A DNA stretch of 34,521 nt, taken from the IMG/VR virus record IMGVR_UViG_3300028394_000193, positions 1-34,521 of that record; one strand, given 5' to 3'. Below the pieces are notes generated by a model. It worked only from the letters and a program-made list of their open reading frames with translations. It did no database searches and was not told the DNA's origin. This stretch comes from a virus. Lineage: Duplodnaviria; Caudoviricetes. Below, piece after piece: positions 8,471-27,169 of the stretch. Position 1 is the stretch's first letter, and each line of letters opens with the position of its first letter. Made by a program: the position numbers and the translations under genes.

Positions 8471-8545
8471 CACCCCGGTAGGGGTGTCATTGTGCCCTCA
8501 CAATACTGTGATATTAGCTGGGTTCCCCAATAAGGAACCCAGCTA
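8470..8545 (+). promoter_or_regulatory. Structured intergenic leader, including a 12-bp hairpin occluding the RBS/start of the phosphoesterase
   Basis: Hairpins are ACACCCC-GGTA-GGGGTGT (8470-8487), ATTGTG-CCCT-CACAAT (8489-8504) and TAGCTGGGTTCC-CCAATAA-GGAACCCAGCTA (8515-8545). The last covers the GGA of the SD and the A of ATG. Confidence 0.7.
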
Positions 8546-9501
8546 TGATAGTCAAGGTATCTGATAAAGACTTCTTGGAGGCTTGGGAAAAGCACAAGTC
8601 CCCGGCAGCACTTGCAAAGTTGTTTAAAATGTCTGAACGCCGCGTCCACAGCAGGCGACGTTCATTAGAAAACCGTTTAAACATCAAGCTCACTGCTGAA
8701 AAACTAATCCCACCACACCTAAAGAAAGCCCGCCATCAAGCAGGTTTAACAGACGGGATAGTTCTAGTATTTAGTGATGCCCACTTCTGGCCCGGCATCA
8801 GAAGCACCGCGTTTAAAGGTCTTCTGTGGGCAATCAAAGAACTCAAGCCCCACGTCATCATTAACAACGGAGACGCATTTGATGGTGCCGCGATCAGCAG
8901 ATATCCTAGAATTGGTTGGGGTCATCAGCCCTCGGTTCGACAGGAGCTAGAAGCTTGTCAGGAAGCTCTAGGAGAGATTGAAAAAGCAGCACACAAGGCT
9001 AGGCACCACACACAACTGATATGGCCTTTGGGCAATCATGACAGCCGATTTGAGACTAAGTTAGCTCAGTCGGCATCAGAGTTTGAAGGGGTTTCAGGTT
9101 TATCTCTCAAAGACCATTTCCCCAAATGGCATGCTTGTTGGTCATGTTGGTTAACTGATAACGTGATTGTCAAACACCGATATAAGGGTGGCATTCACGC
9201 TACGCATCAGAATACCCAGTCAGCCGGGATTTCGATAGTAACTGGGCATCTACACAGTTTAAAATGTACCCCGTACAGTGACTACCGGGGCACGAGATTT
9301 GGGGTCGATACCGGAACATTGGCAGAGATCGATGGTCCACAGTTTATGGACTATCTGGAAGATTCGCCTGTAAACTGGAGATCTGGCTTCGCGGTTCTTA
9401 CATTCAAGGACTCAAAGATGTTATGGCCGGAGTTGGTAAGTAAGCACGAAGATGGGATAATAGACTTTCGTGGTCAACTCATTGATGTAAGTGGGTTCTA
9501 A
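8545..9501 (+). CDS. Calcineurin-like metallophosphoesterase with N-terminal HTH-like region
   Basis: Full motif set: SDAH, GDAFD, GNHD, H (KHRY), GHLH. Confidence 0.9.
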   Translation: MIVKVSDKDFLEAWEKHKSPAALAKLFKMSERRVHSRRRSLENRLNIKLTAEKLIPPHLKKARHQAGLTDGIVLVFSDAHFWPGIRSTAFKGLLWAIKELKPHVIINNGDAFDGAAISRYPRIGWGHQPSVRQELEACQEALGEIEKAAHKARHHTQLIWPLGNHDSRFETKLAQSASEFEGVSGLSLKDHFPKWHACWSCWLTDNVIVKHRYKGGIHATHQNTQSAGISIVTGHLHSLKCTPYSDYRGTRFGVDTGTLAEIDGPQFMDYLEDSPVNWRSGFAVLTFKDSKMLWPELVSKHEDGIIDFRGQLIDVSGF

Positions 9502-15534: not shown

Positions 15535-16674
15535 ATGCCTAATTTCTTTAACCCATCGCTGTCAAACACGCCAAGATATAAAGGGGAAACCTCAACTCCC
15601 GGCGTAACTCCATATGCAGAAGACCTTCTAAAGCGCGGGCAAGCATTTACAAGCGCGGGAGTTCCTGTTTACGGCGGTCAGTTAACCACTGGACCGTCTA
15701 GCTATCAGAACCAAGCTTGGCAAGGGCTGTCTAACCTAACGCTTCCTAAGAATCTTACAGAAGCAGGGACCGCACTAGGGAATATCTCTAGTCAACAGCA
15801 GGGCCTTTCTTACGATCCAACTAAATTTACTACTGGCACATTTGGAAACGAACAAGCTCTTCAGTACATGAATCCGTACATTGAAGCAGCTTTAAATCCT
15901 CAATTGGATTTGTTGCAGCGCAGAGCAGCCATAAACCAACAAGCTGATATGGCTAAGTTAGCACAGGCTGGCGCGTTTGGAGGCTCTAGGCAAGCAATTC
16001 TTCAGGGCTTAACCCAAGAGAACTTGCTTAGGGAACAGGCAGCAACTGCCGGTACTGGGTATGAAAAGGCTTATAACGCCGCTATGGCTCAGTTTAATGC
16101 CGATCAAGCGCGAGATATGGAGGCTCAAAAAGCTTCTGAACAAAGCAAGCAATATGGCGCTGGATATAAACAGACTGGGTTATCGAATGCGGCAAGCGCA
16201 GAACAGGCAAGAGCAGCAGTAGGTGCCAATGAAGCTCAGTATGGTTTGCAAAATTTAAACGCTCTTTCTGCTGCTGGCGCTCAACAGCAAGAGCTTGAGC
16301 AAGCCGCCTTGAATGCTCAGTACAAAGATTGGCTACGCCAAACTGATTACCCCGGCAAGCAGCTTGACATGCAAAAGGGGCTTATTAGCTCATTGGCTCC
16401 CTATATGCCTAAGAGTGAAGTTGCATATGGTCAGAAAGAAAGCGGTTTGCAACAAACTGCTGGCGGCGTAGCAGCAATTACAAAACTTGCCAAAGACATG
16501 GGCATTAACTCTTATACTGATTTAGCAAAAGCGTTTGGCACTTCTGTTGATGCATTGAAAGGTGTATTTGGTATCACTGCGGCTTCAAGTGCTGGCTATG
16601 CTGACGATGAGTTTTCTCTAGCGGCTGAAGGTGGGTTGGCTGGTATGCTACACAAGATGCGAGGTCAAAAATGA
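15535..16674 (+). CDS. Putative DNA-transfer/ejection protein (P22 gp7-like)
   Basis: QYMNPY...AGAFGGSRQAI motif, with Q/A-rich helical composition. Confidence 0.65.
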   Translation: MPNFFNPSLSNTPRYKGETSTPGVTPYAEDLLKRGQAFTSAGVPVYGGQLTTGPSSYQNQAWQGLSNLTLPKNLTEAGTALGNISSQQQGLSYDPTKFTTGTFGNEQALQYMNPYIEAALNPQLDLLQRRAAINQQADMAKLAQAGAFGGSRQAILQGLTQENLLREQAATAGTGYEKAYNAAMAQFNADQARDMEAQKASEQSKQYGAGYKQTGLSNAASAEQARAAVGANEAQYGLQNLNALSAAGAQQQELEQAALNAQYKDWLRQTDYPGKQLDMQKGLISSLAPYMPKSEVAYGQKESGLQQTAGGVAAITKLAKDMGINSYTDLAKAFGTSVDALKGVFGITAASSAGYADDEFSLAAEGGLAGMLHKMRGQK

Positions 16675-18008
16675 ACTTGATTCAAATCACTGAACAGTTG
16701 AAGAACCCCGCTATTAGCGTTCCTCAGTTGATGCAGTACGCAAACAACTCCAACCCTCAAGTGCCTTCATATGTTGCCCTCGCAGAAATGCAAAGACGGC
16801 AATCTATGCAAGCACCTGCACAAGCTCCTCAACAGACAGTGAAAGATCAGCTTGGCGCACAGCTAATGGGATTACCTGCTGCCCCCGGTGCAAATCCCGG
16901 TGCTGCACCGCAACAATCTCCGCAACAGCCGCAGGGAGCACAACCTCCGCCTATGCAGACTCCAATGCCGCAATCCCAACCTGCACTTCCCACTCAACCG
17001 GGAATGATGCCGGGGATGGCTGGCGGCGGTCTGACATCCATCCCTTTAAATTATGCTTCCGGTGGAATGATTGCTTTTGCTGATGGTGGATACCCTGCTG
17101 GGTATGAACTCCCGCAAGAGAAGACACTTGAAGATATTCGTTTGGAACGTGAAGCAGAAGAGCTTAAGCGAGGGATATCCCGAGATCCATACGCAGATGT
17201 TAAACGCCGCTACGCCGAAATCGAGGCAAGGCAAAAAGAAGCCGAGAAGGGCGCTGGCGCTAACAAAATAATTTCTTCTCTTGCTGCTATGGGTGCTGGT
17301 GGCCCACGCCAGTTTGGTGATGTTATGGCTTCATATGCCAATACATCCACAAACATTGAAAAAGAACAGCAGAAGCTTTCAGAGCAGAACGCTATGAAGA
17401 TGGCGGATCTTCAAATGGCATTTGCCGAGAAAGAAGATGCTCGACGTAGGGGTGATTTGACTGGCGACCGCGCAGCGGAAGACAAGATTAAAACTTTACA
17501 AAGGGAAATTCTTGGACTTCGTCATCAGTACAAACAAGCTGAAGCTCAAACAACATCGGCTGGTGCCTCTGCTAAACAAGCAGAAACTCAAGCAAGCAAA
17601 GAAGCTTTTGACCAACAAAACTATCCAAAAGAGTTTGCACTCAAACAACAAGAAGTCCGAGCAAGGGTTGCTAACGCATTGCAAAAACCCGGCGAACTTC
17701 AGGTTATTGACAACATATATGCAGCACTAAAAGCAAAAGATCCAAAAGCAAGTTATCTTGATGCTGTTGAAAGTTATAAAATGGCCGGTGCCGGGGTTAA
17801 CAAATCCGGTGTGCTTACATTCAAAGATGCTCTTGAACTAGCAGGTAAGAATCCTTTGCTTAAAGGTGATGCCTTGATTCAAGAGGCAAAGAGACTGATG
17901 GCTGGTCAAAGTGGTGGGGTTGCTGGGTTGCCTAGACCATCTGCCGGTAAAAGCCCTTACTCTGATAAATCTGACGCTGAAATCAAAGCTGCACTAGGAA
18001 TCAAATAA
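16671..18008 (+). CDS. Putative internal virion/ejection protein
   Basis: P/Q-rich N-terminal region, YASGG/FADGG motifs and a long coiled coil. It is coupled to the giant gene by TAATG. Confidence 0.6.
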   Translation: MNLIQITEQLKNPAISVPQLMQYANNSNPQVPSYVALAEMQRRQSMQAPAQAPQQTVKDQLGAQLMGLPAAPGANPGAAPQQSPQQPQGAQPPPMQTPMPQSQPALPTQPGMMPGMAGGGLTSIPLNYASGGMIAFADGGYPAGYELPQEKTLEDIRLEREAEELKRGISRDPYADVKRRYAEIEARQKEAEKGAGANKIISSLAAMGAGGPRQFGDVMASYANTSTNIEKEQQKLSEQNAMKMADLQMAFAEKEDARRRGDLTGDRAAEDKIKTLQREILGLRHQYKQAEAQTTSAGASAKQAETQASKEAFDQQNYPKEFALKQQEVRARVANALQKPGELQVIDNIYAALKAKDPKASYLDAVESYKMAGAGVNKSGVLTFKDALELAGKNPLLKGDALIQEAKRLMAGQSGGVAGLPRPSAGKSPYSDKSDAEIKAALGIK

Positions 18009-21000
18009 TGGCCGATTTGGATTTGCTGCTTGAAGCCGAGCGTCGAGGTCTGCTGCCCGCTGATAAACAAGGTCTTTTAAACGAGGCGCGGTCCAGAGGT
18101 TTGATTGGTGGTGGGATTCAATCCCTAAAGCAACCACCTAAAGAGCGCACTTGGGGTGAAGCGGCAACTGATATTGCGGCAAGCGTTGGTAAAGGCTTAG
18201 GTCAAACCCTACAGGTTCCGGGTCAGTTGTATGGACTGATTACCGGAGATATGGAGACTCCGCAGGGGCCTCCGCAAAACACAGAAGAAGCCCAAAAAGC
18301 TTTAGTAAGAGGGGCGGGTAACGCTGTTATGCCGGGAATGACTGGCATTCAGGGTCTTGGTAAACGACTTGAGGAATATTCCGAATCTAAGAAATCTGAC
18401 GTTCTAAAAGCCAAAGAGGCAGAGCGCAATCGTCTTATTCAAGAAGCAGAAAGCAAAGGTCTTTTGGAACAGGCAAAAGCCGCTGGCGCTGCAACCATTA
18501 CAGACCCCGCTCTTTTGACCAGCTTCTTGGCAGAGATGGCACCTAATATGTTGCCGGTTGGGGCTGCTGCGCGGCTTGGACGGGGCGTGGTGCTTGGCGG
18601 ACAACTCGCCAAAGGGGTTGGACGAGAAGCTGCTGAATTGGCGGCGCAGAAGGCTGGAACCCGCGCAGCATTAGGCACTGGCGCTGTCATGCAAGGCGCT
18701 GATGTAGGTACAGACACCTATGAAGAGGCATACAGAGAACTTATTGCTAAGGATGTTCCTCCAGACCAAGCAAAGCAAAGAGCTTTAAACCTTGCGCGAG
18801 CTTCTGGTCTTAGTGCCGCTGCGGTCTCTCTGTTAGCCCAAAAACTTCCCGGCGCACGGCGATTGGAAGAATCGTTTGCCGGTAAGGCAGGTGTTGCAGG
18901 ACGCGCTGTCGGTGCTGTCAAAACAGGGCTTGGAGAAAGTTACTCTGAAGGGTTTGAAGAAGCTGGCGGCGCATTTGGCAAGAACCTTGCAATGCGCGAC
19001 ATCAACCCTGAGTATGACCTAACCAAAGGGGTTGGCACGGCAGGGGCGTTAGGTGCTATTGGTGGGGTTGGTCTTGGTGGCGTCGCCGGTGCTTTGCAAA
19101 GACAGGCACCTACAGAAATGCCCAAAGAGGTTCCCCCGATACCAGAGCCTACAGAACCAAAAACGGTTGAGCCATTACGGATTGGGTACAGCCCAACGGT
19201 TGAAGATGTGGTTGAGAAAGACACTCTTCAAAACCCCGTGGGCAACTTCACGCCTAACGAACTCACACCTGAGATTGTGAAGTTTGTTAACAACCTTAGG
19301 AAAGAAGAAGGCAAACCTAAGCTCAAGGCATTCTCTATTGAAGACCTTGTAGAAGCTGGTGCTCCTCCGCAAGAGATTGACCGTTTGCTTGCCTATAAGA
19401 ATCAGTTTGATGGATCGGTAACGCTCTCGGCAGCAGATGTAACTAACATTGCACAACAACGCAATGTAGATACTGAAACCAAAGGGTTTACAGATTTCCT
19501 TCGCAGGGCTACGGGGCAGGAAGATTTAACCCAGATGTCGCAGCCGCAGCTACATTCTGCGTTTGTTGCTTTAAACGCTCTTGATACGTCGCCGGAGCTT
19601 AGGGTTCTTCCTGAAGGAACCAACGCAGTTCGTTTCACTGACAAGCAATACGACAGAGGTCTTAGGGGTGTTGCATTTCAACTTGGTCAAAGTCCTGCTG
19701 TAGGGAGGACTAGTGTCATTCAACAAATCAAAGACTACACGGGACTTGAGAATGATCAAGATGCTCATGTTTTACTTCGTACAGCCATTAGGAATGGTGA
19801 TCTTGAATCAAAGCGCGTACCTCAGTATGAAGTTGTAAATAATGAAGGTAAGGTTCAGTGGGTTAGTAATAGCAGGGAAGCTGCGTTGCGCGGTGCGGAA
19901 AAACGCGGGTTCAACGTTCGCGATGGATTCCGTGAAGAGATCTCATACCCCGGAGAGGCCACGCAACTACCCGGAGGCCCCGACATTCGCATGGGGATGT
20001 TTCAAGAAGGCGAAAGACCAGAGGGCTTTGAAATCAAAGCTGGAAGCACTGTTCTTAGTGTTTCTAACAATGAGACTGATGCCAACGAAAAAGCTGCGCG
20101 GCTAAGTGCTTTACGTGAGCAAGAAGCCAAAAGCACACAAAAGAATATTAACGAACTTAACAAAAAGATTCTTGCCAGCCAGAATGAACTTGAGCGGATG
20201 GAGGCCACCGGGCAGGGGAATTCATTAGAGTTTGCTCAACTGTCCGCAAGTGTCAACGCAGACAACCAAGCTCTTGTAGACCAGACCAACCAGCTAAAGA
20301 AAGATTTAAACGACTATCAGCAGCCAGTCACAGTAGTTCCAACCAAGTCCGTTACCCCTATCGTTCGTGAAGGGTTCACCTTCTTTGATAACGGCGCAGC
20401 GGTTGCATCCTTTCCAACGCAACAGCAAGCAGAAGAGTTTGCTCTTGCCCGTTTAAACAATGAAACGCTAACCAACATTGTTAACGTTGGCCCAACCCTA
20501 AAGGGGTTGATGCCTAAGCGTCTTGCAAAGATGGCTGAAGCGGAGCTTGCCTCTCGCGGTAGGACCGAACCCGGAATTGAAGTTAAGTTTGAAGGCACTG
20601 AAGAAGAAGCACGTGAGCGGCTTGCCAAACTTGGCATCTTTTCTGCTGATGTTCAATCTAAAGTGGCAGAACTTGAGAAAGCCCTGCTACCGGCTTTGCG
20701 TAAGCTTGGCCTTGAGCGAGTTGCTTTAAACATTGTAAGAGAGATTGAGAACAACGCAGAGGGTAACTATGCTGCGGGGGTCATCAAAATCTCTCTGGAC
20801 AACGAACCCGGAAACTATCTGGGTGTTCTGCGCCATGAATCTATCCATGCTCTTAAAGAGTTGGGTGCCTTCACAGCTAAAGAGTGGGCAGTCCTAAACA
20901 AACAAGCTAAGGAAGTGTGGGTTCCTCAGTACATGAAGAACCGCGCAACTGAATACAAGGGCAAACAAACCTCTTTGTATGATGCCTACCGAGACATATA

Positions 21001-24000
21001 TAAAAGAAACAAACTAAAAACCGGCGAAATCACACAAGAAGAATTTAACAACAATGATCCCAAGGCGCTTGCGGGGTTTGATGAGTACATCCAAGAGGAA
21101 GCTATTGCTGAAGCTTTCCGGTATTGGAAGCCTCAAGCTGGTTTCTTTGGAAACATGGGATACCGGCTTTCCAAGATGTTTGACGCTATCAAGAATGCGT
21201 TTAAAGGTCTTGGGTTTAGAACTGCCGACTCGGTCTTTGAGAAGGTCGAAGCAGGAAAGATGCGTCCGAAGGGTGAAGGTAAGGGAGAGGCAAAGTTTTC
21301 TTTGCGTCAATACAAACTTGATATTAAACGTCAAAAACGAGTTGTTCAGGAAATTGTTGATTTGCCTGTTAATGAACAAGCTGCTATTGAGCGTGATGCT
21401 CAAGAAATGGATTTACCAAAAGCAAGGGTTGATGAGCTAATTAAACAAGTAAAGGCTGATAAAAAACGATACCCCGAGAAACAGGGCTGGGCACCGCTTG
21501 AAGTTATTGGCATTGATGTTACATTGGACGATGAAGGAAAACCAATACGCGGAACCGAGGCTCCAAAGTATAAATCTATTCCTTATGAATACAATGTTCC
21601 AACAGGAAAAAACAAAGCGCCCACAAAGGTAGACCCAATATGGTTGGGCAAAGTAACCAAAGAATTTCAAAAACTTGTTCAACAGATTTACACTAGAGCA
21701 AGCAAAGGGGACACAAACGCACAAGGAATCATTGCACATCAAACTTGGTATAAGAACGTAGCCAAAACTCTTCGTAATGAATACGGTGGTTTTGGTGATG
21801 TACTGGCAGACCTTCTTGGTGCTACAAGCCCTAACACGCCTGTTGATACCAATTGGAGATTCTCCATTGATGTGATGCGCCGATTTGTGCGTGGCGACTT
21901 TAACTCTGATTTAGAAAAGTTTTCTAAACATCTTGAAGATGGAAAGCCCGCATCTTCTTTCCCTTCACAAGATAAGATTCGCCAGATAAGTGGCAAGCTT
22001 TATGGGATGAACTCCACGAATGCAATGCTTGCACTTGTGGATGCTTGGAGGCAAATCAAACCCGGACAAGCACCCAAAGCCCGTAACTTTGCCCTTAATC
22101 TTATTGGGCAATCAAACATTGCCACAATTGACGTATGGGCTGCGCGTATGTTGCGCCGCGCCGCAAATGCCATTTCAAAAGGCGAGTACGCTCGCATCCC
22201 CCCTCCTGCGGAGAAGGGGGTTTCTGGAGTTTGGAACACAGATGCAACAGAGATTACTGGTGCGTTTGGGTTTGGCGCAGAAGTTATGCGTCAGGTTTCT
22301 GCAAACCTAAAGAAGAAGGGCATCAACATTGAACCCCCAGACCTGCAAGCAATTGCTTGGTTTGCAGAAAAGGAATTGTGGGGGACCAAGGGTTGGACTT
22401 CAAAGGTAGGGGAAGGCGGTTCGTTTGAAGAGAACATTGAAAAGAATCCAGCAGACCGCTACTTGGCTGGGCATTCAATTCAAGTTGGGGAAACCACGCC
22501 ACTTCCAGAAGACGTTTACAAAGTACAGCAGGACGTTCTTGATGTACTTCAAAAAGACCCAAGTGTTATTGCGGTTCGTGTCAAACCCACTAAGGGTTTG
22601 TACGGGGGGACGGTTGAAGAGTCATTTGATAGCGAGTGGGTTGTAGACAGAAACACGTTTAAACCTGATGTCATCGTTTCGAAGATTGCTGAAGTTTCAA
22701 AGGCCAACCAACAGTACGACATTTTTGTTTCTAGAGTTATTCCTCCTAACGAGGACAACCCCAACGCCAGACCCGGCATCGAACTGTACTTCAAGACCGA
22801 AGAAGATTTAAACAATGTAATGCCTATCCTCAAGTCCTTTACAGACAAAGGGCAGGATGGCTTTACGTTGGCTGTAGACCCACGTGCTACGGGCGATTCC
22901 AACTTGTACATGGGGGTACGGCTTCAGTACGTACCAGAAATCTCCATGCGCTGGGATGAAGAGCTTCGTGAGAAGCTAAAAAATCCTCAAGAACTTGAAA
23001 GGATTCTTGCGGAAAAAGCACAAACACTCGAAGACATTGCCAGCGAAATTTCTCAAGAAGAAGGCGTTGCTTACGCGGCAGTGTTACAGTACGACACAAT
23101 AGTAATAGGGAAGGAAAACTACGATGCCTACATTAGCGGAGCAACTTCCGGGCAAGATAGCGCGGTTGGAGAAAAAGTTTGGTTCGGACAACCGGTTCGT
23201 GAACATGTTGAAGCAGCAGCTAAACGCTATACAGCAGGGCAAGTCGACGAAGCAGTTGTACCAGATGGGGGCGAAGCAGAGGCCCGATACAGTCTTAGAC
23301 CTACAGAACCTTCCGTTCGACCCAGCACAGGCGGCGGGCGAGGCATCACTCTTGGAGAGCGACAGGAAGGAGCGGGAACGTTCAGCGGCATCCACTACGG
23401 CAAAGCCAAAACAGAAAGACTAAGCGGGAGTATGTTTGGCTCCGGCATTCGCGGAGAAGAATCCAAACGGTTAGCTCAGAGCAGGGACCCACGTATCAAG
23501 CGGCGGGTCTACTTCTACATCCCCAATGATGTTGGGTTTGTGATGCGCCCAGAAGCAGGTTTGGGCCAGCACGTTTACACGCAGACCTTTGACAACATCC
23601 TCCCCTCTGGGGATGAGATGTCTCGTCTATACCGTTCCGTAGACAAAGACTTCAATGCGTTTGAAAGCGCAGTGGTTGATGCGGGTTACGATGGATACGC
23701 AGTCCCTTCGCAAGGGATGATGGTCATTCTTAACCACAACGTTCCGGTTAAGTACGAAGGTCTTGCCAACGAACTCCGTACTCAAGGCAAGCTTGTAAAC
23801 AACAAGATTAAGTACAGCCTTCGCGCCAACCCGGCCCAGACAGAAACGCCTGAGTTTAAACAGTGGTTTGGCAAGAGCAAGATAGTCAACAAAGAAGGCG
23901 AACCCAAGGTCATGTACCACGGCACTTCCCGTGACATTACTACGTTCCGCCCTAAACAAGCTGGTGCCATTTTTGTAACTGACAACCCAGACTTTGCTCA

Positions 24001-27000
24001 TATCTTTTCTGGGTTTTCAGAAAAGTACATGGTCAAAGAGTTTGAAAACAAACTTTCAAATGAAGAAAAAAAACAACTTTTGCTTGAAGTTTTAGAGAAA
24101 ACAAAAAAAGAACTTCCGCAACTTACAGTCAAAAGACTTCTTGATAACATAAACAATTCTCAAAATCTTTATGTAGGCCCCGGCGGTTTTCTTACCCAAG
24201 CCCACTTTCTTAATGTTCCTTTTGGAAGCAATTTAGTTAAGGAAGTACAAGCTAGATTAGAGTCGCGTCAAAACATAATGCCTGTATATGTAAGGGCAGA
24301 GAATCCTTTTGACTACAAAAACGAAGAGCATGTAAACAAACTTGTAAATGCAGTATCAAAGCTTTCTGAAAATAAACAAAACGAACTGTATGATGAGTTG
24401 GGGCTTGAGCCAATAGAAAAAACTAGACTATTGGATTTTAAGAATGCTATTGAAGATGGCGTATGGGAAGCAATAGAATCGCCAGAAGTTCAGAAACTTA
24501 TTAAGAAGTTTGGGCACGACGGTTTCTACATCATAGAAGCAAAGGAAAGAAACCTTGCCGTCTATGAGCCATCGCAAATCAAATCTGCGACCGGCAACAT
24601 CGGCACATTCGACATCACCAACCCAGACATCCGTTACTCTGTCCGGGCAAATCTTCCTGCCTCCACTAACGCACGTATTGATGCGACTACGGGGCAGAGA
24701 AAAACCGAAGGGTTCATGGATCGAATCCTTAGTATCTTTAATCCTGATACCCGTGCAAAGCTTCGTGCTGGCTTTATCTTCCAGTTTGAAGCCCTTGAAA
24801 GAGGCACCAAGGCCCGCGCAGCTAAGTATGGTAACCGTGAGTACATGGCGGACGTATCTGCCACTGCCGCCGCTCTGGAGTCGATGCGGTCGAAACAGAT
24901 CGTTGCCGCCGCGATGCGTGACGGAGTTCCGGTTTACCGCAACGGCTTCACCACCACAGACAATTTAAACGGCACACAGAAGGGTCTTCTGGATATCTTC
25001 TCGCCACTTGCTGCAACTGGTGATCCGGATGTTTGGAGATGTTTCCAGTACTACGCTGGTTCTAAACGCGGAGCCAGACTAGATGCCGAAGGTCGCGAGC
25101 ATCTGTTTACACAAACGGACGTACAGGCAGCGAACGCTATGGCCGCGCAGTTTAAACGAGATGGCATAGATTTTGATGCGGTCTACAAGGAATATCAGAA
25201 ATGGAATGATGCCCTTGTTAAGTACATGAAAGATACGGGGGTTCTGTCTGCCGCCGATGCTGCGTACTTCACCAAGTTTGGGGATTACATTCCGTTCTAT
25301 CGCCAGATGGACGGCGAATCCACGGTGGGTCCTAAGATCTTCTCTGCGATTGCCGGTGTTCAGAAACCTAAAGCGTTGAAGGGTGGAACTGAAAAGCTTG
25401 GTGACTTCCTTGAGAACGTGATACGTAATGCTTCTGCCGCTGTTGATGCTGGTATGAAGAACGTTGCCGCGAATCGAGGTATTAGAGATGCGCTCGACCT
25501 TGGGACTGCGCGGCAGGTAAATGTTCCTAATCAGGACTCAGTCAGCGTTAAAGAGAACGGCGTTACCAAGCACTACGAACTTGATGACCCGCTCCTCTTT
25601 GAAGCGTTTAAAGGTCTTAACGTTCCTCGGATGCCTTGGCTACAGATTCTTGCAGCGCCAGCGGATGTGCTTCGGAACTTCGTGACCAAGGACCCCGGAT
25701 TCATTCTGGCTAACATCATGCGTGACTCTGTCTCGGCATGGGTTACCTCGGGTTCAGATATGAAGCCCGTGATTGATTCGTTTAAACAGTTTGGCAAGAT
25801 TCTTGCTAACCAATCCCCGGAAGCGGTTGCTATGGCTAAGGCCGGTCTAGGTGGGTATGAGTTTAAAGGCTCCCTCAAAGACAGCGCAGAAGCCTTTGAG
25901 AAGGCTTTGAGAGCTAAGACAGGAACCAGAACTAAGACCGAGAAAGCTTTGCTTCCAGTTACCGCTCTTTGGGACATGCTTGAGCAAGGCTCTAATGCCT
26001 CTGACTTGGCAACCCGCGCAGAGATCTATAAGCGCACTTTAGCTAAAACCGGCAACGAAGCAGAGGCACTGTTCCAAGCATCGGAGGTGATGAACTTCTC
26101 CCGCCGTGGGAGCTTCCAAGTGATGCAGATCCTTACCGCTGTCGTTCCATTTATGAACGCCCGCATCCAAGGTTTGGATGTTCTCTATCGCTCTGGGTTT
26201 GGTCAGGCCGCGAACGTTAACAAAGAGCGGATGCAGAAAGCTTTCATTGTTCGTTCTCTTTCGATCCTTGCTATGACAGCGGCTTACTGGGCATTAGTCC
26301 ATGACGATGACGAATACAAGAAACTTACAAAGGAAGAACGTGACGGATACTGGATTGTTCCGGGGCTGACCTTCAACGACAAGCCCTTCCGGTTCCCGAT
26401 CCCGTTTGAGATTGGCGTGCTGTTTAAAGTGTTCCCTGAGCGTATCCTAGAATACACAATGGGTCAGGACACCGAGAAGGACTTCAGGGAATCAATCACC
26501 CGCAACATTGTAGATACGCTCAAGTTCAATCCAATACCTCAAGCGTTCATCCCTATCTATGAAAACATCAGCAATCATTCCTTCTTTACAGGAGAGAAGA
26601 TTGTTGGTCGCGGTCTTGAGGATGTAGCTAAACCTCTTCAGTACACCGCATCCACATCACTTGGGGCGCGGTGGCTGGGAGAACAAACCGGCATGTCTCC
26701 AATACAGATAGACAACGTTATCCGGGGCTACACGGGCACAATGGGTATGTACGCGGTCAACATGCTGGACTCGGTCTTTTCGAGCCAAGGAGACCCAGTT
26801 AAAGCCACTACAAGGGCGGAGCAGTTGCCTGTTATTAAGAGGTTCTTTGCCTCTGATTCTGGTACGGTCGCTCAGTACTACGATCTGAAAGACGAGGTTG
26901 ATGAGGTTGTACGTACAGTTAATTTCTTGGAAAGAAACGATCCAGATAAGCTAGAGGAATATCTTAAAAAGAATGAGAACACTTACATGTTGAAAGACTT

Positions 27001-27169
27001 TGTAAGGTCTATTGATAAAGATATGAAACAGATTAGAGAATATCGCGGCGCGGTTAACGCAGACAAAGATATGAGTGGCGATGAAAAGCGCGTAATCCTA
27101 GATGAGCTTCATCAATACGAAGTGGCTCTAACCGCTGATATCAAGGCAATCAGAAAAGAGTTCCATTAA
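18008..27169 (+). CDS. Large polyvalent virion protein (3053 aa): zincin, HhH-GPD-like, SAM-lyase-like, two ART-like domains, LPD38
   Basis: Motifs in order: HESIH at 20834 with EEAIAE at 21095; ATSPN/PKARNF/TIDVW/LQAIAW; GLYGGTVEESF...QQYDIFV; IHYG...RVYFY...GYDGY; FKQWFGKSKIV...YHGT...QIKSATGNIGTFD; DDEYKKL...YWIVP...IPFEIG. Confidence 0.85.
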   Translation: MADLDLLLEAERRGLLPADKQGLLNEARSRGLIGGGIQSLKQPPKERTWGEAATDIAASVGKGLGQTLQVPGQLYGLITGDMETPQGPPQNTEEAQKALVRGAGNAVMPGMTGIQGLGKRLEEYSESKKSDVLKAKEAERNRLIQEAESKGLLEQAKAAGAATITDPALLTSFLAEMAPNMLPVGAAARLGRGVVLGGQLAKGVGREAAELAAQKAGTRAALGTGAVMQGADVGTDTYEEAYRELIAKDVPPDQAKQRALNLARASGLSAAAVSLLAQKLPGARRLEESFAGKAGVAGRAVGAVKTGLGESYSEGFEEAGGAFGKNLAMRDINPEYDLTKGVGTAGALGAIGGVGLGGVAGALQRQAPTEMPKEVPPIPEPTEPKTVEPLRIGYSPTVEDVVEKDTLQNPVGNFTPNELTPEIVKFVNNLRKEEGKPKLKAFSIEDLVEAGAPPQEIDRLLAYKNQFDGSVTLSAADVTNIAQQRNVDTETKGFTDFLRRATGQEDLTQMSQPQLHSAFVALNALDTSPELRVLPEGTNAVRFTDKQYDRGLRGVAFQLGQSPAVGRTSVIQQIKDYTGLENDQDAHVLLRTAIRNGDLESKRVPQYEVVNNEGKVQWVSNSREAALRGAEKRGFNVRDGFREEISYPGEATQLPGGPDIRMGMFQEGERPEGFEIKAGSTVLSVSNNETDANEKAARLSALREQEAKSTQKNINELNKKILASQNELERMEATGQGNSLEFAQLSASVNADNQALVDQTNQLKKDLNDYQQPVTVVPTKSVTPIVREGFTFFDNGAAVASFPTQQQAEEFALARLNNETLTNIVNVGPTLKGLMPKRLAKMAEAELASRGRTEPGIEVKFEGTEEEARERLAKLGIFSADVQSKVAELEKALLPALRKLGLERVALNIVREIENNAEGNYAAGVIKISLDNEPGNYLGVLRHESIHALKELGAFTAKEWAVLNKQAKEVWVPQYMKNRATEYKGKQTSLYDAYRDIYKRNKLKTGEITQEEFNNNDPKALAGFDEYIQEEAIAEAFRYWKPQAGFFGNMGYRLSKMFDAIKNAFKGLGFRTADSVFEKVEAGKMRPKGEGKGEAKFSLRQYKLDIKRQKRVVQEIVDLPVNEQAAIERDAQEMDLPKARVDELIKQVKADKKRYPEKQGWAPLEVIGIDVTLDDEGKPIRGTEAPKYKSIPYEYNVPTGKNKAPTKVDPIWLGKVTKEFQKLVQQIYTRASKGDTNAQGIIAHQTWYKNVAKTLRNEYGGFGDVLADLLGATSPNTPVDTNWRFSIDVMRRFVRGDFNSDLEKFSKHLEDGKPASSFPSQDKIRQISGKLYGMNSTNAMLALVDAWRQIKPGQAPKARNFALNLIGQSNIATIDVWAARMLRRAANAISKGEYARIPPPAEKGVSGVWNTDATEITGAFGFGAEVMRQVSANLKKKGINIEPPDLQAIAWFAEKELWGTKGWTSKVGEGGSFEENIEKNPADRYLAGHSIQVGETTPLPEDVYKVQQDVLDVLQKDPSVIAVRVKPTKGLYGGTVEESFDSEWVVDRNTFKPDVIVSKIAEVSKANQQYDIFVSRVIPPNEDNPNARPGIELYFKTEEDLNNVMPILKSFTDKGQDGFTLAVDPRATGDSNLYMGVRLQYVPEISMRWDEELREKLKNPQELERILAEKAQTLEDIASEISQEEGVAYAAVLQYDTIVIGKENYDAYISGATSGQDSAVGEKVWFGQPVREHVEAAAKRYTAGQVDEAVVPDGGEAEARYSLRPTEPSVRPSTGGGRGITLGERQEGAGTFSGIHYGKAKTERLSGSMFGSGIRGEESKRLAQSRDPRIKRRVYFYIPNDVGFVMRPEAGLGQHVYTQTFDNILPSGDEMSRLYRSVDKDFNAFESAVVDAGYDGYAVPSQGMMVILNHNVPVKYEGLANELRTQGKLVNNKIKYSLRANPAQTETPEFKQWFGKSKIVNKEGEPKVMYHGTSRDITTFRPKQAGAIFVTDNPDFAHIFSGFSEKYMVKEFENKLSNEEKKQLLLEVLEKTKKELPQLTVKRLLDNINNSQNLYVGPGGFLTQAHFLNVPFGSNLVKEVQARLESRQNIMPVYVRAENPFDYKNEEHVNKLVNAVSKLSENKQNELYDELGLEPIEKTRLLDFKNAIEDGVWEAIESPEVQKLIKKFGHDGFYIIEAKERNLAVYEPSQIKSATGNIGTFDITNPDIRYSVRANLPASTNARIDATTGQRKTEGFMDRILSIFNPDTRAKLRAGFIFQFEALERGTKARAAKYGNREYMADVSATAAALESMRSKQIVAAAMRDGVPVYRNGFTTTDNLNGTQKGLLDIFSPLAATGDPDVWRCFQYYAGSKRGARLDAEGREHLFTQTDVQAANAMAAQFKRDGIDFDAVYKEYQKWNDALVKYMKDTGVLSAADAAYFTKFGDYIPFYRQMDGESTVGPKIFSAIAGVQKPKALKGGTEKLGDFLENVIRNASAAVDAGMKNVAANRGIRDALDLGTARQVNVPNQDSVSVKENGVTKHYELDDPLLFEAFKGLNVPRMPWLQILAAPADVLRNFVTKDPGFILANIMRDSVSAWVTSGSDMKPVIDSFKQFGKILANQSPEAVAMAKAGLGGYEFKGSLKDSAEAFEKALRAKTGTRTKTEKALLPVTALWDMLEQGSNASDLATRAEIYKRTLAKTGNEAEALFQASEVMNFSRRGSFQVMQILTAVVPFMNARIQGLDVLYRSGFGQAANVNKERMQKAFIVRSLSILAMTAAYWALVHDDDEYKKLTKEERDGYWIVPGLTFNDKPFRFPIPFEIGVLFKVFPERILEYTMGQDTEKDFRESITRNIVDTLKFNPIPQAFIPIYENISNHSFFTGEKIVGRGLEDVAKPLQYTASTSLGARWLGEQTGMSPIQIDNVIRGYTGTMGMYAVNMLDSVFSSQGDPVKATTRAEQLPVIKRFFASDSGTVAQYYDLKDEVDEVVRTVNFLERNDPDKLEEYLKKNENTYMLKDFVRSIDKDMKQIREYRGAVNADKDMSGDEKRVILDELHQYEVALTADIKAIRKEFH
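23124..23423 (+). CDS. Nested out-of-frame (+1) small protein inside the giant gene
   Basis: SD AAGGA at 23111-23115, 8 nt before ATG. It begins with an amphipathic helical hairpin (TLAEQLPGKIARLEKKFG-SDN-RFVNMLKQQLNAIQQG). The main frame here is linker-like. Confidence 0.6.
   Translation: MPTLAEQLPGKIARLEKKFGSDNRFVNMLKQQLNAIQQGKSTKQLYQMGAKQRPDTVLDLQNLPFDPAQAAGEASLLESDRKERERSAASTTAKPKQKD

Follow-up and report, generated by a model that had tools for sequence, protein, structure and literature searches.

Can an enzyme that cleaves S-adenosylmethionine (SAM) be carried in the phage particle and enter the cell together with the genome? The SAM lyases characterised so far are small, free-standing and made after DNA entry, which leaves the genome exposed while it enters. 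The question is raised by IMG/VR virus record IMGVR_UViG_3300028394_000193 (Duplodnaviria; Caudoviricetes), a ~60% complete phage record of 34.5 kb, the 34,521 nucleotides of which are the window analysed here. A sequence-only reading of this DNA had recognised, at positions 22457-23123, a T3-type SAM lyase-like domain followed by a second ferredoxin-like domain, both embedded in a virion protein. The region lies in frame, starting at R1484, within an open reading frame (ORF; 18008-27169) that encodes a polyvalent protein of 3053 aa. We propose, with moderate confidence and on the basis of structural models, that this tandem of two domains is a single-chain SAM lyase that is delivered by the virion and ejected with the genome. 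If true, a single-chain lyase in an ejection protein would show how an enzyme with its active site at a subunit interface can be remodelled for passage through a phage tail.

Predicted fold and conserved residues of the tandem

The motifs quoted in the sequence-only reading, YLAGHS, KGLYGG (1529-1534), TVEESF and QQYDIFV (1568-1574), are present in the tandem, and the T3 motifs set beside them there (YVLVSA, GCY, TEEKT and EQDCVLV) agree with the T3 record. The AlphaFold2 model of residues 1478-1712, built from 38 sequences, has a predicted local distance difference test score (pLDDT) of 85.3 and a predicted template modelling score (pTM) of 0.82, and contains two ferredoxin-like domains (residues 1482-1708), the second beta-alpha-beta-beta-alpha-beta unit included. 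In model numbering, the first unit is formed by strands 5-13, 43-55, 58-70 and 94-101 with helices 23-39 and 77-89, and the second by strands 110-118, 142-144, 159-163 and 210-224 with helices 121-136 and 183-205. The predicted fold is the ferredoxin-like (PII/GlnB-like) alpha-beta sandwich of the SAM lyases.

Comparison of the tandem model with 48,161 representative solved chains placed the SAM lyase Svi3-3 first (PDB code: 6zm9; Z 9.6, root-mean-square deviation (rmsd) 2.9, 110 of 129 residues aligned, 16% identity); after Svi3-3 and the porter domains of AcrB, the next row has a Z of 8.2. In a second look at 1000 chains from Foldseek, 6znb leads with Z 10.2, many AcrB rows lie within 1 of it, and other single-domain folds stay at Z 8.3 or below, except one engineered ferredoxin-fold protein (Z 9.4). 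The identity to Svi3-3 is the highest among the top structural rows, equalled by one MscK row. Foldseek itself ranks 6znb 32nd (E 1.6e-3, probability 0.99), behind two-domain ferredoxin proteins with an rmsd above 15; the chlorite dismutase-like tandems at the head of its PDB matches fit poorly (rmsd 15-18, TM ~0.3) and were discarded. In a viral structure library, the best rows are uncultured-phage proteins that match the whole tandem, followed by several phage proteins of 100-150 aa, one of them annotated as a SAM hydrolase.

The tandem family is not rare, and neither Pfam nor PHROG has a model for it. Word seeding retrieved 152 proteins (120 of them listed), and a profile search with E up to 0.001 gave 507 clusters at 50% identity, the best 150 of which were inspected. 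All conservation and fusion counts rest on 231 proteins and are biased to close relatives. Among the 225 aligned segments that cover the positions of G1530, E1537 and Q1569, the Gly and the Gln are present in 225/225 each and the Glu in 222/225; position 1532 is occupied by Y/F in 221/225. The G-x-Y and Q positions that the sequence-only reading had matched to T3 are hence conserved (G1530, Y1532, Q1569), and they stand in the T3 register, as HHalign pairs G1530/G55, Y1532/Y57, E1537/E68, S1539/T70 and Q1569/Q94, with G55, E68 and Q94 invariant among 12 T3-family proteins. Of the EE pair claimed with them, the first residue stood and the second did not: E1538 is E in just 38/225 segments, and because it is so poorly conserved we assign E1537 as the equivalent of T3 E68, with E1537-x-S1539 aligning with T3 E68-K-T70. 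EE as a conserved pair is a coincidence.

The Svi3-3 counterparts are G56 for G1530, Y58 for Y1532, E69 for E1537, S71 for S1539 and Q104 for Q1569. G56, E69 and Q104 are conserved ligand-binding residues of SAM lyases (PMC7877911); domain 1 possesses this strictly conserved Gly/Glu/Gln set in the expected strands and loop of the model, the equivalence following from register and secondary structure rather than from a residue-level superposition. Y58 of Svi3-3 is bonded to E105, to S71 and, from the other subunit, to S50 (PMC7877911). Domain 1 repeats the pattern of an aromatic lid with a partner acid: an acid is found at 1570 or 1571 in 212/225 segments, and here it is shifted by one to D1571, which likely stands in for E105. 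In 125 non-redundant homologs, the most invariant positions of domain 1 are G1530 (125), Q1569 (125), E1543 (124), E1537 (122) and S1575 (121). As three of these five are strictly conserved SAM-lyase residues (PMC7877911), the likeness of domain 1 exceeds chance. By modelled fold and by residues domain 1 looks like a SAM lyase, with a margin that is real but modest. In two homologs (P0149 and P0154) an insertion of ~60 residues interrupts domain 1 shortly after the E-x-S-F-D strand.

Several observations weigh against a SAM lyase. The AcrB porter domains tie with Svi3-3 for the first place (Z 9.6, 186 aligned, 9% identity), and the profile of the tandem, compared with that of the 12 T3-family proteins, gave no significant match (E 0.1-0.4). 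The structural match to a SAM lyase that the sequence-only reading called for was obtained with Svi3-3, in that tie. The hairpin between the Gly and the Glu has 7 residues, compared with 13 in T3 and Svi3-3; E1537 is missing in 3/225 segments; further invariant polar residues (D1541, E1543, R1588, E1592, R1638, Q1640 and E1644) go beyond what a SAM lyase needs; and a distant homolog (L051:4481-5089) has lost the lyase Gly and Glu while it keeps the upstream glycosylase domain, with an insertion. None of 38 members gives a Pfam or PHROG match to a SAM lyase. AcrB was judged to have a similar arrangement of two ferredoxin units, at 6-12% identity, and not to be kin.

The HHalign score of 12.9 (E 0.15) is exceeded by the maximum of 100 column shuffles, 17.8, and since it falls inside the shuffle range, the register is not by itself evidence of kinship. 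The cut-off of PF23780 (S-AdoMet_lyase), against which T3 SAMase itself scores 143 bits, is reached by none of the 38 members; the tandem is not a member of PF23780. The same profile has no match in the 34.5-kb record, where controls were equally silent. PDB sequence searches linked the tandem to no known family, a single match with E 1e-4, mS23, having been dismissed as an alanine-rich stretch, and a search of the ESM Atlas with the tandem gave no usable match. Active SAM lyases are described as barely similar in sequence to each other.

The AcrB tie and the silent profiles would also be expected if the tandem were a non-catalytic ferredoxin-like scaffold, or a nucleic-acid-binding wing of the upstream glycosylase domain, in which the Gly, Glu and Gln are inherited or coincidental. 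Ferredoxin folds are common, and DEMETER and ROS1 carry an RNA recognition motif (RRM)-fold domain, which provides a parallel. We regard such a scaffold as improbable: the three residues are near-invariant at ~30% overall identity, they are kept in homologs that lack the glycosylase domain, and the top structural rows have their highest identity (16%, one MscK row equal) with a SAM lyase.

SAM-AMP lyases, the enzymes of type III CRISPR systems and of phage (AcrIIIB4), likewise have a PII-like fold with a catalytic Glu and Gln; they are trimeric and have a strictly conserved C66 (PMC12255297). The tandem has the Glu and the Gln, and no conserved Cys in its hairpin. These enzymes share structurally only E71 and Q108 with SAM lyase and have a different T-loop, and a phage SAM-AMP lyase exists that does not cut SAM (PMC12255297). 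E and Q could in the same way serve a lyase or binder of another adenosyl ligand, for example SAM-AMP, a signal molecule of type III CRISPR systems, or a cyclic nucleotide; a phosphate could be held by the short hairpin and by the arginines that are invariant in domain 2. The Y58/E105 pattern of Svi3-3 is, however, followed by Y1532 and the acid downstream of it, and we consider a ligand other than SAM very unlikely. SAM-AMP lyase structures are absent among the matches listed by Foldseek and by the structural comparison, an absence that excludes nothing.

Domain 2 and the proposed composite site

Svi3-3 (PDB codes: 6ZM9, 6ZNB; PMC7877911), with which the tandem shares the predicted ferredoxin-like fold and the G/Y/E/S/Q set, is a homotrimer of small subunits, with three sites that lie between them, whereas the tandem has two unlike domains in one chain, contains the full residue set only once and is part of a protein of 3053 aa. 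The T3 gp0.3 SAMase (PDB code: 7OCK; PF23780) has the same motif order and register as the tandem and a fold match of Z 5.6; it differs in being a free early protein that binds MetK via an N-terminal tail and a QT-H loop, and no T3-type MetK-binding motif was seen by eye in the tandem. In the MetK complex, T3 SAMase is a monomeric nine-stranded barrel, and its E68Q/Q94A mutant is dead (10.1101/2023.02.27.530186). Being monomeric there, it demonstrates that SAM-lyase chemistry does not require a trimer. The model of 613 residues that covers the tandem and the domain upstream of it shows no third ferredoxin unit with which a pseudo-trimer would be complete.

We propose that domain 1 provides one half of the site, the catalytic one (G1530, Y1532, E1537, S1539 and Q1569, a role suggested by their conservation) and that domain 2, having lost the lyase residues, supplies the other wall of the pocket. 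Domain 2 would be the parallel of the neighbouring subunit, which contributes that wall in Svi3-3, and of the extra C-terminal strands, which do so in T3 SAMase. Domain 2 has no counterparts of the lyase Gly, Glu and Gln, and in HHalign neither its comparison with T3 nor that of domain 1 with domain 2 gave anything meaningful. It has an invariant set of its own, NARPGxE, DGFT, GxRxQxxPE and YDTxV, of which DGFT resembles the G-x-T motif that a neighbouring subunit supplies in PII proteins.

Three weak lines place domain 2 at the pocket of domain 1. The superposition of Svi3-3 extends to model residue 227, in the tail of domain 2. T3 SAMase aligns over 124/152 residues to the 613-residue model (Z 5.6), over a range that is given by its first and last residue only, starting in the domain upstream of the tandem and ending at residue 544, in domain 2. 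In a covariation analysis of 226 sequences, the pairs 1571-1701, 1532-1571, 1532-1648, 1570-1649, 1571-1645 and 1570-1702 rank 4, 12, 13, 18, 24 and 28. The covariation signal is weak, with an effective depth of 154; two of these pairs drop to ranks 102 and 110 in a run on the whole module; and the link between Y1532 and D1571 becomes weaker once the tree is taken into account (8 and 7 changes, 13 joint) and is only partly tree-independent. Covariation across the whole module was dismissed as noise. On the models and the covariation, domain 2 probably lines the pocket, and each chain would then hold one composite site.

At ranks 4-32 of the viral structure library, both domains are matched over their full length, at 8-14% identity, by other polyvalent proteins as well as by proteins of 208-320 aa from giant viruses and from Acinetobacter and Aeromonas phages; these are possibly a wider tandem family.

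The upstream glycosylase-fold domain

In 216/231 proteins the tandem is preceded by a DUF7178-type domain whose end lies no more than 120 residues away; of the remainder, 12 have fewer than 150 residues upstream and 3 are without such a domain. Of 9 loci on genome contigs, 8 have the domain, and the other one is truncated by the end of its contig. In the 3053-aa protein the Pfam match to DUF7178 covers residues 1217-1384 (E 1.4e-8). Residues 1100-1712 are predicted as one rigid unit of 613 residues (AlphaFold2 pLDDT 94.3, pTM 0.92, 55 sequences), in which the domain-2 hairpin, with pLDDT 53-57 in the tandem alone, rises to 83-92.

The best VIA match of the 613-residue model is the 8-oxoguanine glycosylase of Thermotoga maritima (Tm1821, PDB code: 3n0u; Z 7.2, rmsd 3.9, 173 aligned, 13% identity), followed at Z 4.7-5.8 by EndoIII, CacOgg, Mag1, OGG1 and AGOG, with about a dozen more rows of the HhH-GPD fold; these Z scores are middling for helical proteins and diluted by the size of the model. 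Glycosylases were seen by VIA-align only, and none is among the matches listed by Foldseek for the same model. The upstream domain is predicted to have the two-lobed helical fold and the catalytic Lys/Asp of the bifunctional HhH-GPD glycosylases. K1357 and D1375 are 18 residues apart, compared with 19 for the dyad K249/D268 of hOGG1, and Q1447/W1451 are spaced like Q315/F319 of its guanine pocket (PMC12732785), an equivalence taken from spacing and position. The OGG-type enzymes (Tm1821, 3N0U; human OGG1) thus share with the upstream domain the predicted fold, the Lys/Asp pair and a Gln/aromatic pair in the last helix, from which the phage domain differs by its divergence and by its fusion to the SAM-lyase-like tandem. 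We infer from sequence and model that it may be a glycosylase/apurinic-apyrimidinic (AP) lyase for some altered guanine.

So constant a fusion, in proteins whose other domains vary freely, is what would be expected if the module of about 600 residues were one SAM-coupled DNA enzyme, in which the tandem binds SAM or methylthioadenosine (MTA). It would then either act as an on/off switch of the glycosylase/AP lyase, in the manner of PII proteins, or transfer the aminocarboxypropyl group of SAM to a base or abasic site within the grip of the HhH domain. The pTM of the whole module, the better ordered domain-2 hairpin, the invariance of K1357/D1375 and the extra invariant residues of the tandem are in line with such an enzyme. 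On the other side, four homologs lack the HhH domain and DUF7178 occurs alone elsewhere, which implies that each part can exist separately, and the near-universal fusion could reflect one inherited event. We consider a SAM-coupled enzyme the main alternative, possible but doubtful. Its boldest form, an ejected enzyme that couples the chemistry of a SAM lyase to a base-flipping glycosylase fold so that SAM gates guanine excision or donates aminocarboxypropyl to the incoming DNA, and the phage would edit or shield its DNA at entry, seems unlikely to us.

The homologs without the glycosylase domain (P0157, P0171, P0190 and P0103) occupy four separate places in a tree of 125 leaves, and the three with residues listed keep the G/Y/E/Q set. 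Their existence makes the tandem a module in its own right. In P0157 (816 aa, on a contig of 8.8 Mb) the tandem lies behind a Peptidase_S78 prohead protease, and D1541 and E1543 are replaced. DUF7178 in turn stands alone as phage proteins of 190-320 aa. No clean stand-alone tandem was found among the short homologs checked: 5 matches of 129-412 aa lie on contigs below 1.7 kb, and of 8 more short or N-terminally short matches 7 lie on contigs below 2.7 kb, while P0177 (248 aa, on a contig of 13 kb) lacks the first 25 profile positions.

This case is particular in that the tandem is asymmetric and is joined to a glycosylase fold. A literature search, covering titles and the openings of abstracts with subscription journals mostly missing, found no virion-borne SAM lyase, no tandem form and no glycosylase fusion. 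The near-constant fusion would link SAM metabolism to base excision, and it gives the little-studied DUF7178 a testable context. The question can be put to a direct test in E. coli with constructs of 235 residues (tandem) and 613 residues (module), for each of which the point mutants to make are obvious.

The polyvalent protein, its proposed delivery and its genome setting

The 3053-aa protein (Table 1) belongs to the phage polyvalent proteins as described by Iyer et al. 2017 (PMC5512222), since Pfam finds DUF7178, ART-PolyVal and LPD38 in it; several disparate enzyme domains and LPD/ART domains are united in one chain among virion genes. The likeness to the polyvalent proteins of that study extends to LPD38, ART-PolyVal, the HExxH motif and the place among virion genes. 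The main text of PMC5512222 does not mention 'glycosylase', 'S-adenosyl' or 'ferredoxin', and its supplements may list the region as an unnamed domain. The gene closes a block of tail, lysis and virion genes on the plus strand. A neighbour scan of 49 ORFs, 45 of these from 11 related loci, showed ejection or internal-virion families flanking the module protein in six loci (L002, L004, L047, L048, L050 and L053), virion structural families beside it in L003 and L005, terminase and portal in L046, and only lytic or unnamed families in L001 and L006. A place of the module in a block of virion and ejection genes is thereby supported, at the locus itself and in relatives, in line with the virion protein of the sequence-only reading. 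An LPD38 protein, gp47 of phi24B, was detected in virions by proteomics (10.64898/2026.04.10.717836). By analogy with this protein, and because of the ejection-type neighbours, we infer packaging: the 3053-aa protein is likely an ejection (internal virion) protein.

We propose that the protein is packaged and ejected with the DNA, and that the module is perhaps freed by the HExxH domain; the zincin-like stretch around this motif could release it from the polyprotein, and a metallopeptidase (MPTase) role has been proposed for polyvalent proteins (PMC5512222). A single chain with one complete site would have no need to oligomerise after ejection. The tandem would then cleave SAM to MTA and homoserine lactone and lower SAM before phage gene expression, with the OGG-type glycosylase/AP-lyase fold, which is joined to it in most members and is predicted to pack against it, possibly active as well. 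It would serve to weaken defences that depend on SAM, namely type I/III restriction and bacteriophage exclusion (BREX), in the first minutes of infection, a role that is plausible chiefly where the host cell is small.

Arithmetic weighs against this proposal. With a SAM pool of 0.18 mM and the Svi3-3 rate of 9.5 turnovers per second, 4-12 copies would need 16-48 min for a single turnover of the pool in an E. coli-sized cell of 1 fL, and 1-2 min in an assumed cell of 0.05 fL, resynthesis being left out of the estimate. T7 gp16 is present in 4-6 copies (PMC8954989), and T3 makes ~10,000 copies of its SAMase (10.1101/2023.02.27.530186). As bulk depletion by so few ejected copies is slow, the SAM-coupled DNA enzyme described above stays alive as an alternative to the ejected lyase.

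Table 1 Features of the polyvalent protein and its locus (positions in the window; residues of the 3053-aa protein)
Feature	Position	Strand	Basis
DNA ejection protein gene, two genes upstream	15535-16674	+	phrog_4287, E 1.6e-10
3053-aa polyvalent protein	18008-27169	+	Pfam LPD38, ART-PolyVal, DUF7178
HExxH motif HESIH, residues 943-947, zincin-like stretch	20834-20848	+	sequence
Conserved module, residues 1100-1712, glycosylase-fold domain and tandem	21305-23143	+	AlphaFold2 model; fusion in homologs
HhH-GPD glycosylase-fold domain (DUF7178), residues ~1215-1466	21650-22405	+	Pfam; VIA structural matches
K1357 and D1375, predicted catalytic pair	22076-22132	+	79/79 non-redundant homologs each
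Q1447 and W1451	22346-22360	+	78/79 non-redundant homologs each
Domain 1, residues ~1482-1578, SAM-lyase-like ferredoxin fold, predicted catalytic half of site	22451-22741	+	model, fold matches
G1530-x-Y1532 and E1537-x-S1539	22595-22624	+	conservation; register with Svi3-3 and T3
Q1569 and D1571	22712-22720	+	Q matches Svi3-3 Q104 and T3 Q94; conservation
Domain 2, residues ~1587-1708, second ferredoxin-like unit	22766-23131	+	model, conservation
ART-PolyVal domain, two stretches, residues ~1943-2201	23834-24610	+	Pfam E 1.2e-12; phrog_21376
LPD38 domain, residues 2767-2942	26306-26833	+	Pfam E 2.2e-38

Immediately ahead of the ART-PolyVal domain, residues ~1790-1940 (23380-23830) carry the pattern HYG...GIRGEE...RRVYFY without a Pfam match, a stretch that we take to resemble a second ADP-ribosyltransferase-like domain. 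A metallophosphoesterase gene (phrog_221) is located at 8545-9501 inside the virion/lysis block, and in L002 a similar gene lies directly 3' of the polyvalent gene. The sequence CCWGG is fully absent from the window (0 observed, 45 expected, both strands), CCGCGG is absent too, and GGCC and GATC are depleted. The pattern resembles restriction-site avoidance, common to several relatives (L001, L003 and L050).

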